Below are positions 8,339-36,551 of a stretch of DNA of 41,710 nt, in pieces; positions within the stretch are counted from its first letter, which is position 1, and each line of letters begins with the position of its first letter. A program made the translations under genes and the position numbers. The notes under the pieces are model-generated. The model saw nothing but the letters and a program-made list of their open reading frames with translations, did not search any database and was not told where the DNA came from. This DNA comes from Deltaproteobacteria bacterium (GTDB lineage Bacteria > Desulfobacterota > Desulfobacteria > Desulfobacterales > UBA11574), in NCBI GenBank assembly GCA_019310125.1, contig JAFDEW010000001.1:1-41710 (forward strand). The letters are read 5' to 3'.

Positions 8339-8592
8339 GGTAAGTCCTAACCCGGACAAGCCGGAACCCAAGAGAATTTAAAATTAAATATCGACAATTT
8401 AAGGAAGTCGCTCCCGCCCGTCATTGTAAATCACAAGCGGGCAGGTCGCTCGATCATTTTGGTGTTGATAATAATTAAAATCCGGAAAAATTCCTTAGCC
8501 ATTTAACATTCAACTCAAATTCGTCACTCGACGACTCAACCAGTTTAAAATTTTCAATCATCAATCGTCAATCTTAAATTTTCAATCCATAG

Positions 8593-8848
8593 CCCGGATA
8601 TTTCACGAGTGCGAGGCGTTCATTTGCAAGGCATTCAAGGGCGCAGCCGTAGTGAACTACTGCAAGCCCTTGATAACGAAGCAAATGGGCGCCTCGCACT
8701 CGACCGAAGGGTGAAAAATTTTGAGAAATTGAACAAGAAAATCTTCGGTACAAACTGTCACCTCACAACTAGAGGCAAAATTGTAAATAACAAACTGTTC
8801 TTATTAATAATACAAAAACTTCTCGAAAATTTTCATGAGATGTTCGGG
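8593..8848 (+). repeat. MITE-like composite element M1 (degenerate copy) carrying hairpin E1
   Basis: The outer arms 8593-8607 (cccggatatttcacg) and 8834-8848 (catgagatgttcggg) pair at 11 Watson-Crick and 3 G-T positions out of 15. The layout parallels 35353-35561. It ends directly at the glgP stop codon (8849-8851). Confidence 0.45.
8607..8701 (+). repeat. 95-nt structured hairpin element E1 (candidate structured RNA or ssDNA element)
   Basis: Four stems: a perfect 12-bp basal stem gagtgcgaggcg/cgcctcgcactc, then catttgc/gcaaatg, tcaaggg/cccttga and gccgtag/ctactgc, closed by a tgaa loop. A second 95-nt copy at 35369-35463 has compensatory changes in the stems. Confidence 0.7.
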
Positions 8849-11395
8849 CTAGGCCCATGTGATAAGCCCGGGGGCAAATCTGATTCGGTCATCTCCATTG
8901 GGTATAGCTCTGACAGTAAAACCATACCGCCCTGAATTGCTGCAAGCTATGGTGCAAGAGTAAAGATATTCACTATCTCCATGGATCTCCTTTACGGTCA
9001 TTTCTTGAGAATGACTGTTTGCGATGCTGTCCACAGTTTTTAATGGCCCGTAATAGAGTTCCATTTTTACTTCATCAGGATTCAGCTCTCCCAAATTCAC
9101 CATGGCTGTTACTTCAAACCCTTCTCCCACCCAAAACGGGCCTTCGGCTTTTCGTACAGGAGGTTCAATCCTTATTTTTCCCCACAGGGAGCTGAGTCGG
9201 TTATACTGAGCGGAAAGAATTACAGCTTCCTTGGCATTATCTGCAGTCAAACGCGCAAAGCGCTCTGTGGCGGGAAGATAAAATCTGGTTTCATATTTTT
9301 TAACCATTATACGGGCGCAAAATTGCAACATCGCCATCTTCATTGATTCTTTCATCATTTTGAGCCATCGGTCCGGCACGTCCCCATTCCTCCTTTCATA
9401 AAAGCAAGGAATCACATCGTTTTCCAGCACATTATAAAGGGCCAGGCTCTCCACCGTATCCTGGTAGGCGGAATCAGTATATTCCTCTTCGTCTCCGATA
9501 CTCCACCCTCTTTCTTCAGCATATCCTTCACACCACCAGCCGTCGAGGATGCTCACATTAAGGACTCCGTTTGTGGCAGCTTTTATACCGGATGTGCCGC
9601 ATGCTTCAAAGGGCCGTCTGGGAGTATTAAGCCACACATCCGCACCCTGAACCAGGTTCCGTGCGATACTGATATCGTAGTCTTCTAGAAAGGCGATTCG
9701 GTGGCGTACATTGGGTCTGCGGGCAAACTGGATAAGGCGCTTGATCAGCTCCTTGCCTTCGTTATCTTTAGGATGGGCTTTTCCTGCGAAGATAAACTGA
9801 ACCGGATTTGTCTTTGAGGTAATGATTGCTTCAAAGCGCTCCGGATCTTTAAGCAAAAGATTGGCCCGCTTGTACGTCGCAAAGCGACGGGCAAAGGCGA
9901 TGGTCAATATATCCTGGTCCATTACCGATTCAGCATCCTTCATCATACTTTTGGGAGCATTACGGCGCCGGTATTGCTTTATCATCAGTGCCCGGCAATG
10001 GCGAATAAGGCGGCTGCGACTCATTTCGCGGGATCGCCACAATTCCTCATCATAAATATCGTCAATGCGTTTGGCAATTTCCGGGTTCCCCATGTCCAAA
10101 TGCCAATCCGGTCCAAGATAGCGTTCAAACAGCAGGGAGTTCTCAACGGAAATCCACGAAGGAATATGTATCCCGTTGGTGATATGGGTTATGGGAACCT
10201 CATCTTCCGGCCTGCCGGGCCAGACATGGGACCACATGCGTCTGGCCACCTTTCCGTGCAATTCGCTGACGCCGTTGCAGTATTGCGCACTGTGCAATCC
10301 CAGAACGAACATGGAAACGGGGGTGTCTGCACCGGATTTCATAGGTTGACCCCACGATAAGATCTGTTCAACGCTTATTCCGAGTCTGTCGATAAAAGAA
10401 TTAAGATACGGTTTTACAAGGTCAACGGGAAACTCATCATGCCCTGCTGCCACCGGCGTATGGGTAGTAAAGACCGTGGTTCGTGAAACGATCTCCTTTG
10501 CGGTTTCAAGATTGACATTATAGCAAGAAATTGTCTGAGCAAGCCGCTCCAGGGTGACAAAGGCGCAATGACCTTCATTCATGTGGCACACGGTCGGATA
10601 GATTCCCATGGCTTCAAGAGCACGCATTCCGCCGATTCCCAGCAGCACCTCCTGGGCCAGCCGAGTCTTTGGGCTTCCGGCATACAGACGAGAAGTTATT
10701 TCCCGAATCTCCGGGGAATTTTCCGGCAAATTGGTATCCAGGAGAATAAGAGGAATTCGCCCTACCATGATTTTCCAGACAACGGCCCGGATTACTCCCT
10801 CAGGTCCGGTGACCGAAATGATTAGCTCATTTCCTGAACCATCCTTTACCCGTTTCACAGGCAGGCAATAGATATCGATTTCCGGATATTCCTCCTGCTG
10901 CCAGCCCTCATGATCCAAAAACTGATGAAAATAGCCATGCCGGTAGAGAAGGCCTACCCCTATCAAGGGAAGGGCAAGGTCGGAAGCCGCCTTTAAGTGA
11001 TCACCGGCCAGAACTCCGAGACCGCCTGCAAACAGGGGAACACTTTCATGAATTCCGAATTCCATGGAAAAATATCCGATAGTCCCCTCTTTTTTGTATG
11101 AAAATTCGCCGGGATCCTCAGGGGTTAAATCGTTCACAAAATGTTCTTCCACCCGTTGCTGATGAGCCAGAAAACTTTCGTCTTTTGACAGTTCCTCCAG
11201 TTGTTTTTGGGGAATTAAGGTTAAAAATACGATGGGATTGCGACCGGACTCTTCCCAGAGCCGGGGACTTATTCGACGAAAAAGTTCAATGGCATCCATA
11301 TGCCAGCACCACCAAAGGTTGCGTGCCAGAACCTGAAGAAAAGAAAGGGGTTTTGGAATTGATGGAAACACTTGAAATGTTTGCAAAAAACTCAT
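8849..11395 (-). CDS. glgP: Alpha-glucan phosphorylase (GT35, form with the DUF3417-type N-terminus)
   Basis: 848 aa. The N-terminus is LARNLWWCWHMDAIELFRRISPRLWEE. The pyridoxal-phosphate lysine region EACGTSGIKAATNG is present. AAGGAT lies 7 nt upstream of the ATG. Confidence 0.85.
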   Translation of the reverse strand: MSFLQTFQVFPSIPKPLSFLQVLARNLWWCWHMDAIELFRRISPRLWEESGRNPIVFLTLIPQKQLEELSKDESFLAHQQRVEEHFVNDLTPEDPGEFSYKKEGTIGYFSMEFGIHESVPLFAGGLGVLAGDHLKAASDLALPLIGVGLLYRHGYFHQFLDHEGWQQEEYPEIDIYCLPVKRVKDGSGNELIISVTGPEGVIRAVVWKIMVGRIPLILLDTNLPENSPEIREITSRLYAGSPKTRLAQEVLLGIGGMRALEAMGIYPTVCHMNEGHCAFVTLERLAQTISCYNVNLETAKEIVSRTTVFTTHTPVAAGHDEFPVDLVKPYLNSFIDRLGISVEQILSWGQPMKSGADTPVSMFVLGLHSAQYCNGVSELHGKVARRMWSHVWPGRPEDEVPITHITNGIHIPSWISVENSLLFERYLGPDWHLDMGNPEIAKRIDDIYDEELWRSREMSRSRLIRHCRALMIKQYRRRNAPKSMMKDAESVMDQDILTIAFARRFATYKRANLLLKDPERFEAIITSKTNPVQFIFAGKAHPKDNEGKELIKRLIQFARRPNVRHRIAFLEDYDISIARNLVQGADVWLNTPRRPFEACGTSGIKAATNGVLNVSILDGWWCEGYAEERGWSIGDEEEYTDSAYQDTVESLALYNVLENDVIPCFYERRNGDVPDRWLKMMKESMKMAMLQFCARIMVKKYETRFYLPATERFARLTADNAKEAVILSAQYNRLSSLWGKIRIEPPVRKAEGPFWVGEGFEVTAMVNLGELNPDEVKMELYYGPLKTVDSIANSHSQEMTVKEIHGDSEYLYSCTIACSNSGRYGFTVRAIPNGDDRIRFAPGLITWA

Positions 11396-11509: not shown

Positions 11510-11596
11510 CAGGTTTCAGGTGTCAGGTGTCTGGAGAGAGGGACGTAAGAGCGGAAACCCAAAACCTGAACACTGACACCTGACACCTGAAACCTG
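11510..11596. repeat. Hairpin F1: perfect 22-bp arms built from caggtgt heptads, 43-nt loop
   Basis: 11510-11531 (caggtttcaggtgtcaggtgtc) is the exact reverse complement of 11575-11596. A related hairpin lies at 31666-31734. F1 sits between the debranching-enzyme stop and the glgP start. Confidence 0.85.
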
Positions 11597-17906: not shown

Positions 17907-18059
17907 GGCATAAGCGCTAACTTATTTTTACGCCGGAAGGACTGTGGAAGGTTTACTTAAAAAAAAGAACGTCCAACATCGAACGTCCAACATCGAATGT
18001 TGAATGGAAAAAGATGAAGAAACAGAAATAGCTGTTGAATGTTCGGTATTGGATGTTTG
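17907..18059. repeat. Element G1: conserved ~60-nt module plus an imperfect hairpin with arms made of gaacgtc/caacatc words; T8 run on the minus strand
   Basis: 17907-18006 aligns with 32619-32711 (ggcataagcgctaa.ttattt..cgccggaaggac.gtggaaggtttact.aaaaaaa..gaacgtccaacatcgaa.gttgaatg). The right arm 18036-18059 pairs with the left arm. The element starts directly after the RR2 stop codon, so it may terminate the HK2-RR2 transcript. Confidence 0.6.
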
Positions 18060-18060
18060 T

Positions 18061-18738
18061 TTATTCTTTCCAGAGGTCAACGTCAATCAGGCCGAGCTTT
18101 GCAGCATAGCGGATCAATTCAATGGTATTGTGGAGACCGAGCTTGTTCATAATGTTGGAACGGTGGTTTTCAACGGTCTTGGGGCTGATAAAAAGCTTTT
18201 CAGCAACTTTTTTGCTGGAAAACCCTTCCGCCAATAGGCGCATTACTTCCTGCTCCCGAGGCGTCAACGTATCATAATCGGAATCTGTAATTTTTGCCTC
18301 TTTTAAAGGAGATTTCATAAGATTTTCAACCACCGCATGGGAAACCGAGCTGTCGAGAAAATAATCGCCTCTTGCAACAGATTCAAGCCCCTGCAAAAGC
18401 CTTTCAGAGGCAGATTCCTTGACCACATATCCGGTTGCTCCAGCCTGAAATGCTTCGGCAATATAATCAATTTTAGAATGCATGCTGACAATTAAAATGC
18501 GTGTTGTCGACAAAAGAGTTCGAATTTCCCTAGTCAATTGAATACCGCTTCGATCCGGCAGGGATATGTCCACTATGATCACATCCGGTTTGAGTTTTTT
18601 TGTCAGTTGAAGCCCCTCTCTCCCATTCCCGGCTTCACCAACCACCTCAAAACGAGAATCGCGCTCTATAATTGCCTTAAGCCCTTCCCTGAAAAGAGGG
18701 TGATCATCAATAATCAATATGCTCTTTTTATCGGACAT
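18061..18738 (-). CDS. NarL/FixJ-family response regulator, paralog 2
   Basis: The start ATG 18738 (MSDKKSILIIDDHPLF) has AAGGAG 7 nt upstream and overlaps the HK2 stop by 11 nt. It is about 73% identical to RR1 by my manual alignment (59 mismatches over about 222 positions). Confidence 0.9.
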   Translation of the reverse strand: MSDKKSILIIDDHPLFREGLKAIIERDSRFEVVGEAGNGREGLQLTKKLKPDVIIVDISLPDRSGIQLTREIRTLLSTTRILIVSMHSKIDYIAEAFQAGATGYVVKESASERLLQGLESVARGDYFLDSSVSHAVVENLMKSPLKEAKITDSDYDTLTPREQEVMRLLAEGFSSKKVAEKLFISPKTVENHRSNIMNKLGLHNTIELIRYAAKLGLIDVDLWKE

Positions 18739-28004: not shown

Positions 28005-28046
28005 TGGGTATTATCCCTTTTGATGCATAACTTGAATTTTACACGA

Positions 28047-31490: not shown

Positions 31491-31665
31491 ACTGAAGCGT
31501 CCGTTTGTCGAACTCCTCGCCCCGTATCTCAGTGGAAACGTCAAAATCAACTCTAACTGATTCAATTAAAAGCTATTTGTTTTCACGGATAATGACTAGG
31601 CTGATTAAAATTGCACATAATATGGCTTTAAAAATTATCCCATATTTATTCCTTCCCGTATGCCT

Positions 31666-31734
31666 GGTTTCAGGTGTCAGGTATCAGGTGTCAGCGCCTC
31701 TGTTTATCATTCCTGACACCTGACACCTGAAACC
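31666..31734. repeat. Hairpin F2: same caggtgt-heptad family as F1, with unequal heptad numbers in the two arms
   Basis: The left arm is ggtttcaggtgtcaggtatcaggtgtcag (31666-31694). The right arm is ctgacacctgacacctgaaacc (31713-31734). The left arm carries one extra heptad (gtatcag). Confidence 0.8.
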
Positions 31735-32197
31735 TTAAGATATGGAACAAAAATGAGATTAAAATTTCATCTGTATACACGGCAATTTTCACCACCCCAG
31801 ATAATGACTTGGCCCTGCATTATTCGTCAACATACATCAACTTACCTGTCAAATTTATGTCATTTTAAATTTGCTTACTTCCTATGAGTTTTTGAGCTGC
31901 AATACCATCATACCTTCTATCTATTCGATATTTAAGGAATATAGATAGATTTTCTCTTTTTCTGAAATCTTTGGAACGATTATTGCTCAATATAAAGACA
32001 GAGAATTCTAAACGGCTAACTCGGTGCAACTTTTTATCATTATATTTTATTTATAGGCATGTTTCTTTAATGACGGGATTTGCTGTGACATCATTGAAGC
32101 CATTTTATGGCTGTGGGTGATGCTAAGGATACGCTTCTGGTCGGTATTGCACAGCTTGACCTGATCCATCTTTGAAAAGAGGCAAAGGATACCCAAT

Positions 32198-32618: not shown

Positions 32619-32842
32619 GGCATAAGCGCTAAGTTATTTTCTGCGCCGGAAGGACCGTGGAAGGTTTACTGAAAAAAATGAACATCGAACGTCCAACATC
32701 GAACGTTGAATGAGAAAAAGGAAACCAAAAGATGGTTAAAACTTATTCAGAAGGTACCATTAATTCGATGTTGGAATAATTTGAGGAGCGGAGCGACATC
32801 ATTATTCGACGTTCAACGTTCAATGTTCGATGTTGGACGTTC
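32619..32842. repeat. Element G2: conserved ~60-nt module plus a hairpin with an 18-bp perfect stem made of gaacgtc/caacatc words
   Basis: 32687-32704 (gaacgtccaacatcgaac) is the exact reverse complement of 32825-32842. Further partial arm copies at 32766-32777 and 32812-32821 allow alternative pairings. The 5' module aligns with G1. Confidence 0.7.
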
Positions 32843-32919
32843 ATCTTTTAATATGGTTCTGGGATACGGCAAGAAATCACGGGGTTGATTTAGGAAGCAA
32901 TAATAAGGAAAAACTCAAC

Positions 32920-33711: not shown

Positions 33712-33855
33712 TTATAACCTGAATCTTGCATGAAAATTAATGAGATTTTTTAAACGGCTTAATTGGAGCGAGTTTAGACAAAATCAGATAATTATCGTTT
33801 TTACCCAAATGTTAAATCGGATAATGATCTTTCTCGTGCAAGATTCAGGTTATAA
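33712..33855 (-). repeat. MITE-like element M2 (19-bp perfect terminal inverted repeats, no E hairpin)
   Basis: 33712-33730 (ttataacctgaatcttgca) is the exact reverse complement of 33837-33855. In reverse orientation the interior aligns with the right part of 35353-35561 (gggtaaaa.cg.ataatta ... tctcattaattttcatgcaagattcaggt). The mpl stop codon (33850-33852) lies inside the right arm. Confidence 0.6.
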
Positions 33856-35352: not shown

Positions 35353-35561
35353 TACCTGAATTTTGCACGAGCCGGAGGCTTTCATATGCAAGGCATTTAA
35401 GGGTGAAGTCATAGTGAACTATTACGAACCCTTAATAACGAAGCAGATGGAAGCCTCCGGCTTGCCCTTTGGGTAAAACGTATAATTACATGATGTTGTA
35501 TAAACCTGGCTCAAATAAGTAACCTAAAGATTCTCATTAATTTTCATGCAAGATTCAGGTA
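35353..35561 (+). repeat. MITE-like element M3 carrying hairpin E2
   Basis: The arms acctgaattttgca (35354-35367) and tgcaagattcaggt (35547-35560) pair at 13 Watson-Crick positions and 1 T-G position out of 14. The interior is E2 plus a segment homologous to M2. It ends 2 nt from the stop codon of the membrane-protein gene. Confidence 0.6.
35369..35463 (+). repeat. 95-nt structured hairpin element E2
   Basis: Same length and architecture as E1. Stems are gagccggaggct/agcctccggctt, catatgc/gcagatg, ttaaggg/cccttaa and gtcatag/ctattac, closed by a tgaa loop. The internal-loop sequences aaggcat and taacgaa are identical to E1. Confidence 0.7.
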
Positions 35562-35562
35562 A

Positions 35563-36171
35563 TTATTCTCCGGTCACGGGTGGTTTAACGGGAGGCGGAC
35601 CCGGCGGCGTCGCAGGCTTTGCCTTTCCGAGCGTTTCATAGACTGACAGCAGAAAAATGGTTGCCAGAGGCTGGGTAAAAAGAGACCCGATAAATACGGA
35701 GCTTCCAATCGCAGATATTCCTATAAACAGGATAAAAACCACGATGTGGTCCACAATAGACTCTTTTGTAACCATTAAATAACTTTGCTTGACAGCATCA
35801 ATTAATCCCAGATTTCTGTCTGTCATCAGCGGCAGCATGTAGATGCAGCAGAATGAGACCGCAAGCAAAAACAGTACTCCGGGCAGGAAAAGAAGCATCA
35901 GGCCGATCATGGTTATAATGAAGACCACAACACCGAAGCATAAAAGAGGTAAAAAAAGTCTCATTTGTGAAAAAATATCCTGAACCTTGGGCTCGCGTCT
36001 CTCTCTTACCAACAGGAGAATGGAATGCATATAGCCGGCCATTGTTACCGGCGCCAGGATACCCAACGTAATAATGCTTATGGCAATCATGGCAAGGGTC
36101 ATGAATATTAGTGGTGCAATATACTGCAGTGTCATTTTCCAGGCGTTTTCCAGATAATATTTAAAATCCAT
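35563..36171 (-). CDS. Integral membrane protein (multiple TM helices, Pro-rich C-terminus)
   Basis: The start ATG 36171 (MDFKYYLENAW) has GGAGGG 7 nt upstream. It has long hydrophobic stretches and the C-terminus KPATPPGPPPVKPPVTGE. Confidence 0.6.
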   Translation of the reverse strand: MDFKYYLENAWKMTLQYIAPLIFMTLAMIAISIITLGILAPVTMAGYMHSILLLVRERREPKVQDIFSQMRLFLPLLCFGVVVFIITMIGLMLLFLPGVLFLLAVSFCCIYMLPLMTDRNLGLIDAVKQSYLMVTKESIVDHIVVFILFIGISAIGSSVFIGSLFTQPLATIFLLSVYETLGKAKPATPPGPPPVKPPVTGE

Positions 36172-36405
36172 GAATGTTCCCTCCACAAGGTTGTCAATTA
36201 TTATATGATTATGTTAAAAACATATAATCAACAAGACATTCCAAGTCAAGCCCTGTCAGCCTAAAAAGATTTTTCCGGCTTGTTCTTGATAGGAACGGCA
36301 ACTATCCTGCCGAAAATTTTCCACGCAATATTCTATAATTTTGTTTAGGCGGCACAGCTCTTGTCAGGCCAAAGCGGCGCGTGGCTTCGGATGTGAAGAA
36401 GTATT

Positions 36406-36551
36406 TAGTGTCCATCCATAAACGGCATCTTTCGGCCCCCGGCGGCGTTCTCGCTCGTTTTCAATCCTCGAAATAGCACGCTATGCCTGCGGTTGAAAAC
36501 TCGCTTGAGCCTTGCCGGAAACCAAAATCTACCATTTCTGGATGGACACTA
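36406..36551. repeat. Element L: 146-nt imperfect palindrome
   Basis: The outer 13-bp stem tagtgtccatcca (36406-36418) / tggatggacacta (36539-36551) is perfect. The inner pairs are ccggc/gccgg and gttttcaa/ttgaaaac. Confidence 0.6.

Follow-up and report, generated by a model that had tools for sequence, protein, structure and literature searches.

The window (the whole stretch of DNA that was analysed, 41,710 nt in length) matches the Desulfobacteraceae MAG GCA_019314345.1 and contains two copies of a 95-nt hairpin module, E1 and E2, each inside a larger composite element that is bounded by 17-18-nt terminal inverted repeats of the CCTGAATCTTGCACGA type. A third element with both ends (E3) and a lone end-like sequence are found in the same stretch. 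The features, with what each is based on, are:

8591-8851, + strand: E1 composite, a putative MITE copy of 261 bp (both ends found; fold of the whole element)
8591-8608, + strand: left terminal inverted repeat of E1, AGCCCGGATATTTCACGA (pairs with 8833-8850 in the fold)
8607-8701, + strand: E1 hairpin module, 95 nt, with a 7x7 internal loop, AAGGCAU / UAACGAA
8703-8712, + strand: small 3-bp hairpin, ACCGAAGGGU, after the E1 module (fold; helix 4 of the covariance models R1 and R2)
8713-8832, + strand: long-range helix of E1 (GAAAAATTTTGAGAA with TTCTCGAAAATTTTC) around a poorly conserved spacer (fold)
8833-8851, - strand: right terminal inverted repeat of E1, adjoining and overlapping the glucan phosphorylase stop codon, TAG
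8849-11395, - strand: glucan phosphorylase gene
28030-28046, + strand: lone end-like sequence, ACTTGAATTTTACACGA, directly adjoining a stop codon
33717-33850, - strand: E3, a third putative MITE copy of 134 bp, both ends present, hairpin module deleted
35354-35560, + strand: E2 composite, a putative MITE copy of 207 bp (ends; comparison with the related locus L128)
35354-35371, + strand: left terminal inverted repeat of E2, ACCTGAATTTTGCACGAG; the IS1380-family elements L187 and L230 have the same 17 nt at their ends
35369-35463, + strand: E2 hairpin module, 95 nt (sequence, RNAfold, match to R2)
35465-35473, + strand: small hairpin, CCCTTTGGG, after E2 (sequence, R2)
35544-35560, - strand: right terminal inverted repeat of E2, 2 nt after the TAA stop codon of the membrane-protein gene
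35563-36186, - strand: membrane-protein gene

Three copies and a lone end thus occur within 41.7 kb, each adjoining the stop codon of a neighbouring gene; the insertion sites are AT-rich and directly behind the stop codons, and E3 is wedged between those of mpl and an inositol-phosphatase gene. The left end of E2 (35354-35370) reads ACCTGAATTTTGCACGA, and its inverted partner ACCTGAATCTTGCATGA is located at 35544-35560. The composites (261, 207 and 134 bp) contain spurious ORFs only and no transposase gene. The whole E1 composite (8591-8851) has a predicted folding energy of -107.4 kcal/mol on the + strand versus -97.1 kcal/mol on the minus strand, with the left end paired to the right end and with the hairpin, the 3-bp hairpin and the long-range helix around the spacer all kept. 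Removal of the module block (approximately 110 nt, from CGAG to the small hairpin) leaves a plain long palindrome (…TTGCA/TGAAAAT…ATTTTCA/TGCAA…), and the module therefore reads as an insertion, a block of approximately 110 nt within one arm of what would otherwise be a simple palindromic MITE.

The two hairpins were first noticed in a preliminary description made from the letters of this DNA, and most of what it said of them is borne out: reading of the sequence places both 95-nt elements at the coordinates listed above, RNAfold returns one common four-helix hairpin for E1 and E2 in agreement with the four-stem architecture proposed, and seven base pairs are changed on both sides between the two copies (basal stem, four; stem 3, one; apical stem, two). 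The C-T mismatch of the apical stem is retained in both copies, and the unpaired parts are identical, as described (internal loops AAGGCAT and TAACGAA, apical loop TGAA). The loop strands of both copies, GCAAGGCAT and TAACGAAGC, form a bubble between stems of TTTGC / GCAAA. The folding energies of the + strand (E1, -60.2 kcal/mol, z -10.7; E2, -49.3 kcal/mol, z -9.6) were equalled by none of 200 shuffles, and the minus strand folds more weakly (-56.5 and -43.2 kcal/mol, respectively). The statement that the hairpin belongs to no named RNA family also holds: Rfam gave no match in the whole window at gathering thresholds, and only chance-level matches to microRNAs and snoRNAs between 8500 and 8900 at E values up to 10. 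To our knowledge, the loop sequence fits no sigma-54 promoter, kink-turn, sarcin-ricin loop, SRP domain IV or known self-cleaving ribozyme core.

Comparison with related genomes and metagenomes indicates that the elements have been gained, lost and dispersed. In the related locus L128 (Mpl 88% identical), E3 is absent, and 2 nt separate the mpl gene from the convergent inositol-phosphatase gene; the site reads TTATAA-element-TTATAA in the window and a single TTATAA in L128. The same relative keeps an orthologous E2 in a full form of approximately 257 bp, by comparison with which the E2 of the window is a deletion derivative of the 254-257-bp form, having lost 47 nt between two TTTGGGT repeats. 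In a second relative (L127, Mpl 90% identical), the same upstream gene is present and E2 is absent. Another MAG (L056) contains, between unrelated flanks, a copy that matches the whole E1 composite at 230 of 263 positions (87%). Because E3 and E2 are absent in relatives and the E1 composite recurs at an unrelated locus, the elements are considered to be MITEs. A metagenome scan with the end sequence alone found at least 120 loci, and among the matches listed the paired ends are mostly 254-257 bp apart. Direct repeats at the point of insertion are TTATAA for E3, CTAA for L056 and ATAC for L230, and other copies have only imperfect AT-rich flanks; target-site duplications are thus clear at these three loci only and not clean in most copies. 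Some hosts contain dozens of copies per genome, which break assemblies at contig ends.

The reading that best accommodates these observations, to which we assign a probability of roughly 0.75, is that E1 and E2 are the selected hairpin module of two copies of an ERIC-related MITE (approximately 255 bp at full length) with IS1380-family ends. The same positions could instead be explained by a cis-regulatory or protective RNA element of the host operons, such as a REP-type stabiliser, a processing site or a terminator, kept at these loci by selection. The location of three copies and a lone end directly after stop codons, between genes, would suit such a role, and effects on mRNA decay are known for ERIC and Correia elements (PMC2229807, PMC10969869); but relatives lack the element at the same loci, near-identical copies stand at unrelated loci, E3 persists without its hairpin, and the host mRNA here would carry the weaker, complementary strand. 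An intrinsic terminator, which would be a GC-rich stem with a T-run after it, was rejected on the sequence, as there is no T-run. We regard an operon RNA element as an improbable explanation.

Constraint on the module was followed with two covariance models, R1 from 7 Desulfobacteraceae copies and R2 from 39 copies outside the Desulfobacteraceae. In the R1 alignment (n=7), 94% of cells are paired and 17 of 39 pairs have changed on both sides; in the R2 alignment (n=39, other phyla), the figures are 89.6% and 38 of 39. Copies were also collected without reference to the hairpin: among the matches listed, the module lies directly inside the left end at 32 of 100 loci chosen by end sequence only. 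For these 32 end-found copies the pairing amounts to 94% of cells, falling to 48% or less when the partner is shifted by 1-3 columns, and 32 of the 39 pairs show changes on both sides. Their loop consensus is CAAGGC opposite tAACgcAGc, and conservation is 0.89 in the loops versus 0.78 in the paired columns. Eleven copies without the exact loop pattern give 0.85 for loops versus 0.54 for stems; the model by which they were found includes the loop sequence in its score. Among 14 full-length copies, mean pairwise identity is 0.82 in the module versus 0.56 in the rest of the interior (the spacer).

The preliminary proposal that the + strand is the one that folds is upheld by the wobble pairs, which in E1 and E2 are G-T on the + strand only; on the strand that bears GCAAGGC, the ratios of G:T to A:C in three sets of copies are 53:7, 118:15 and, for the end-found copies, 90:9, an excess of G:T that implies folding of one strand. 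The window E2 and its closest orthologue in L128 differ by four substitutions, two in loops and two in stems (one of which forms a wobble), and the constraint is not visible at this short time scale. Taken over the larger sets, the module is apparently kept by selection on a strand-specific, single-stranded fold. The covariance-model search that the preliminary description had proposed recovered copies in relatives and in other phyla with strong covariation in the stems. Changes in the stems are compensated, and conservation is higher in the loops than in the stems; uncompensated stem substitutions as frequent as those in loops, which it had named as evidence against its structure, did not appear. 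The structure that it described is real and selected; the surrounding inverted-repeat elements were missed.

It had put the hairpin forward as a candidate novel structured element, with a discrete RNA of about 100 nt to be sought, and on this point it has to be revised: the hairpin is probably the inner module of a multicopy MITE with IS1380-type ends. A free-standing small-RNA gene on the + strand, acting as a trans or cis-antisense regulator, would account for the better folding of the + strand and its possession of all the wobble pairs, for the covariation of the structure, and for the antisense placement relative to neighbouring genes, which the preliminary description had remarked on and which holds for the window and for 6 of 7 genome copies from Desulfobacteraceae. 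That placement does not extend further: orientation to genes is mixed in larger sets, and the antisense bias has vanished in the 32 end-found copies. No sigma-70-like promoter was found on the + strand upstream of either hairpin, and a consensus scan found no terminator-like site on either strand at or next to either of them; three weak terminator-like sites, at 8436-8452 (+) and 8521-8534 (-), are outside the E1 element. Furthermore, the hairpin forms part of a transposon-like unit that ends in inverted repeats, close relatives have gained or lost copies, and some hosts have dozens of copies per genome, unlike a regulator gene. A small-RNA gene at these positions is accordingly judged unlikely.

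The ends of the elements point to a transposase family. The sequence ACCTGAATCTTGCACGA bounds E2, E3 and two IS1380-family elements, L187 (140-1942) and L230 (19-1775), which are located on metagenome contigs (other DNA than the genome of the window) and have these same ends approximately 1.8 kb apart around a transposase gene each. The transposases (516 aa in L187 and 491 aa in L230) share 55% identity; they match PF13701 (8e-28) and score 193.5 and 203.3 bits, respectively, against the IS1380-family model NF033539, for which the curated cut-off is 180. The ends of ISEcp1, a member of the IS1380 family, are CCTAGATTCTACGT and have the same family-level pattern, likewise starting with CC. The E1-type ends, CCCGGATATTTCACGA, are a diverged variant, unlike the ends of the insertion sequences L187 and L230, and no autonomous partner with exactly E1-type ends was found; nor was there any autonomous element among the matches listed from at least 118 genome loci that contain the loop pattern. 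Thus, a DDE transposase of the IS1380 family may move the element in trans by recognising its ends.

The elements have in common with IS1380-derived MITEs ends identical over 17 nt to those of L187 and L230, AT-rich insertion sites and a lack of coding capacity; they differ in the interior, which contains a structured module of approximately 110 nt and is not a deleted insertion sequence. R2 found no match to the hairpin module in L187 or L230, and the module, which has no counterpart in these insertion sequences, is nonetheless common to elements with other ends. A tblastn search of plasmids with the L187 transposase returned only distant relatives of the ISEcp1 type (approximately 25% identity) and none in Vibrio or Shewanella, so that ERIC could not be tied to IS1380 by this route.

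The loop and the hairpin are widely distributed. A scan of a genome collection with the two loop decamers found at least 118 loci, and approximately 80 of the matches listed are hairpins with unrelated yet complementary stems. Among the matches listed, the carriers include Psychromonas, Colwellia, Shewanella, Saprospiraceae and Flavobacteriaceae, one MAG each of Zetaproteobacteria and Patescibacteria, five MAGs of Desulfobacteraceae, and an Alteromonadaceae MAG with many copies, often at contig ends. R1 recovers the copies in the other phyla, and matches copies in Vibrio tritonius and Photobacterium (E values of 4e-10 and 1.6e-9, respectively) that had been found by BLAST, independently of the loop pattern. 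Conversely, R2 matches E1 with 101.3 bits (E 1.5e-25; 8602-8716) and E2 with 101.1 bits (E approximately 1.5e-25; 35364-35478), versus only 13.7 and 11.1 bits on the opposite strand. CAAGGC opposite AACGNAG is the loop of ERIC-like elements of approximately 260 bp in Vibrio, Photobacterium, Colwellia and Parashewanella, and the same loop motif occurs in hairpins of Shewanella and Saprospiraceae. A scan of viral contigs with the loop pattern gave one match. Literature searches on the loop decamers, or on MITEs in Colwellia and Psychromonas, turned up nothing useful.

These relatives point to a connection with ERIC, described as a MITE that is found in Enterobacteriaceae and Vibrionaceae and has inverted repeats and TA at its termini (PMC2229807, PMC3184786, PMC10969869), the 127-nt consensus of which has been published (PMC2759123, Table 1a). 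In the reverse complement of the consensus, an internal loop immediately within the outer stem places GCAAGGC opposite AACGCAGC, and the GCAAGGC strand folds at -61.8 kcal/mol versus -45.2 kcal/mol for its complement, 16.6 kcal/mol better; the combination of loop and strand of folding was derived from the published consensus in the present analysis and is not a textbook criterion for ERIC. The gammaproteobacterial relatives (approximately 260 bp) are arranged in the order end, module, small hairpin, diverged inverted module, end, and 21 of 25 positions agree between the ends of the Parashewanella element, TATACCCGTGATACCTCAAGATGCA, and those of an ERIC copy from E. coli, TATACTCGTCATACTTCAAGTTGCA. 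Over 14 positions, the ends in the window agree with the inner part of the ERIC terminal sequence, TATAC[C/T]CGTCATA[C/T]TTCAAG.TGCA, at approximately 8-11 only; gammaproteobacterial relatives with the same module clearly have this terminal sequence.

The elements resemble ERIC in being imperfect-palindrome MITEs that are intergenic, inserted in both orientations and provided with AT-rich or TA-bearing termini; in having an internal loop of GCAAGGC facing AACG(C/A)AGC just inside the outer stem; in that the motif-bearing strand folds much better than its complement; and through the relatives of approximately 260 bp in Vibrio, Photobacterium, Colwellia and Parashewanella, which combine the module with ERIC-type ends. 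They differ from it in length (207-261 bp, usually 254-257 bp when full length, versus 127 bp), in their ends (CCTGAATCTTGCACGA or CCCGGATATTTCACGA versus TATACCCGTCATACTTCAAGTTGCA), in lacking the central core of ERIC (the region of the ERIC1R and ERIC2 primers), and in their Desulfobacteraceae host, which is outside the range of Enterobacteriaceae and Vibrionaceae (PMC10969869). When E1 and E2 were locally aligned with the ERIC consensus, the result did not rise above 500 shuffles, and R2 applied to one E. coli ERIC copy gave a nonsignificant 10.7 bits (E 2.3). Because direct similarity to ERIC is weak, E1 and E2 are called relatives within an ERIC-like superfamily and not ERIC elements. What links the Desulfobacteraceae copies to ERIC is a pair of short loop motifs, together with the asymmetry of the strands and the intermediates in Gammaproteobacteria, and it is on this footing that the hairpin module is placed in an ERIC-related superfamily. 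The preliminary description had held that a clear match to a known repeat family would speak against a novel element; what was found goes partway, with the ERIC loop motif shared and related ends in the gammaproteobacterial relatives, but with no overall similarity.

The bubble and the strand bias also invite comparison with repeats that move as single-stranded DNA, whether as a REPIN served by a RAYT, as a relic of the IS200/IS605 type, or as an attC-like site with an enzyme acting at the bubble. Such an origin would explain a wobble bias confined to one strand whatever the direction of host transcription, and a conserved unpaired bubble between two helices, as is present in attC and CTX attP; it is also in keeping with the gammaproteobacterial elements being inverted doublets of the module. 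However, the ends are those of a DDE element of the IS1380 family, there are no RYYYAAC / GTTRRRY boxes and no cassette arrays, and a non-systematic look at the copies saw no Y1/HUH or integrase gene beside them. Inspection of E1 and E2 revealed neither the GTAG/CGTC tag nor the 20-40-bp unit by which REP sequences are defined (PMC3733652). Movement as single-stranded DNA of these kinds is therefore considered very improbable.

Three known systems were compared with the module individually. An integron attC site was rejected: the stems by the bubble are TTTGC / GCAAA, not AAC / GTT, and the copies are solitary, with one exact match to the loop pattern at each of 80 loci among the matches listed. 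REP and REPIN (RAYT) sequences, in which the REP unit is 20-40 bp long and bears a GTAG or CGTC tag (PMC3733652), are likewise multicopy extragenic palindromes with compensated stem changes, and the gammaproteobacterial relatives of the module are inverted doublets as well; however, the unit here is 95-115 nt, lacks the tag and has ends of the DDE type, and this candidate was judged improbable on unit size and the missing tag by inspection of E1 and E2. The Correia (NEMIS) elements of Neisseria are also small intergenic inverted-repeat elements, and their transcripts fold into long hairpins that undergo RNase processing and alter mRNA levels (PMC10969869). There is, however, no sequence relationship; Correia elements have no conserved asymmetric internal loop, and RNase III processes them where their ends are paired.

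How the module acts can be outlined only conditionally. Since copies occur in both orientations relative to host genes, read-through transcription cannot explain the bias of wobble pairs to one strand; with read-through excluded as its cause, either an internal promoter was missed by the sigma-70 scan or there is a single-stranded DNA stage. In Yersinia, reviews describe an orientation-dependent, RNase E-mediated effect of ERIC on upstream mRNA (PMC2229807, PMC3184786, PMC10969869). By analogy, an element transcribed within an operon could form RNA hairpins that alter the processing and stability of the neighbouring cistrons, and because the element abuts stop codons, ribosomes stopping by its right end could open the long-range helix that joins the two ends. 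Such a role of the element at the RNA level is an analogy, not a result.

A broader and rather doubtful interpretation is that the CAAGGC/AACGNAG hairpin is an ancient functional domain of single-stranded RNA or DNA, acting by protein binding or catalysis, that has hitch-hiked in MITEs with different ends in at least three phyla (Gammaproteobacteria, classical ERIC included; Desulfobacterota; and Bacteroidota); ERIC-type repeats would in that case be grouped with the MITEs that IS1380-family transposases serve. We know of no mobilising enzyme ever identified for ERIC-type repeats.

The E1 and E2 elements represent an already known type of MITE, ERIC-like and associated with IS1380, in a long form that is new and belongs to Desulfobacterota; the loop signature across phyla and the link to a concrete transposase family may be new as well. 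For genome annotation, hairpins of this kind should be masked as mobile repeats and not called as small-RNA genes, and the repeats explain contig breaks in several MAGs. ERIC repeats have been a tool for strain typing for more than 30 years. According to reviews, no function is assigned to their core, and their range is that of enterobacteria and vibrios (PMC2229807, PMC3184786, PMC10969869). If the link to ERIC is true, the loop of that core would mark a structured module that is under strand-specific selection and has spread horizontally into sulfate reducers and Bacteroidota, and at least one branch of it would be tied to a transposase family, IS1380, making both its mobilisation and the role of the loop directly testable.

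Just inside the right end, all MITE copies in the window carry a ATGAAAAT... stretch, read in the same sense as the upstream gene:

8803-8835, gene-sense strand: right-end ATGAAAAT stretch of E1
33731-33754, gene-sense strand: right-end ATGAAAAT stretch of E3
35526-35546, gene-sense strand: right-end ATGAAAAT stretch of E2

These give tiny ORFs of 7-10 codons (MKIFEKFLYY* in E1, MKINEIF* in E3 and MKINENL* in E2), which start 11-16 nt past the host stop codon; because their length varies among copies and is not conserved, they probably arise incidentally from the inverted repeat.

Other repeats and a GC-rich hairpin occur in the window. Among the repeats are a second hairpin family, in which the heptad CAGGTGT recurs in inverted runs (CAGGTTTCAGGTGTCAGGTGTC ... 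GACACCTGACACCTGAAACCTG), and a third family, with about 100 nt flanked by inverted arrays of AACATCGAACGTCC-type units:

11510-11596, intergenic: CAGGTGT-heptad hairpin repeat
31664-31737, intergenic: CAGGTGT-heptad hairpin repeat
17960-18021: AACATCGAACGTCC-type inverted arrays
32673-32849: AACATCGAACGTCC-type inverted arrays
36414-36539, minus strand: GC-rich hairpin upstream of a membrane-protein gene

The heptad family, whose two copies are weak matches (23.8 and 16.3 bits) to R2, the covariance model of hairpin copies outside Desulfobacteraceae, is unrelated to the E1/E2 hairpin. The third family includes a 75-nt direct copy (17925-17999 and 32638-32712, 83% similar), and a 300-nt direct repeat with 71% identity (1627-1926 and 18061-18360) is probably paralogous coding sequence. 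The GC-rich hairpin is conserved in a relative (L128, 102-227) and matches R2 weakly (20-22 bits); its loops rule it out as a member of the E1/E2 family. By eye only, a region of another relative between the membrane-protein gene and mpl (L127, ~300-440) appears similar to it.

Elsewhere, two metagenome copies of the E1/E2 hairpin retain the outer stem and internal loop, with large GC-rich insertions (40-80 nt) replacing the apical helices, and members of a sub-family lie directly 3' of a tRNA gene that is on the opposite strand:

L144 4309-4463: hairpin copy with apical insertion
L163 600-796: hairpin copy with apical insertion
L001 6038-6153: tRNA-adjoining hairpin
L019 322-403: tRNA-adjoining hairpin
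L024 241-322: tRNA-adjoining hairpin
L034 1344-1451: tRNA-adjoining hairpin

Contig L024 (602 bp, 'Pseudanabaenaceae') probably entered its bin as a contaminant, judging from its near-identity to the Rheinheimera contig L019.

The left end of the IS1380-family element ISEcp1 (L253, 426-455) has CGTCAGTACTTCAAAAAGC directly inside its 14-bp inverted repeat, which matches the end of the enterobacterial repeat ERIC, CGTCATACTTCAAGTTGC, at 15 of 18 positions with one gap; this likeness may be a coincidence, or may point to kinship between the ends of ERIC and those of the IS1380 family. In another locus (L082, ~440-520), the gap between one element's right end (TTTTTTCATGTAAGATTCAGG) and the neighbouring element's left end is 2 nt, and the elements are thus able to insert side by side.
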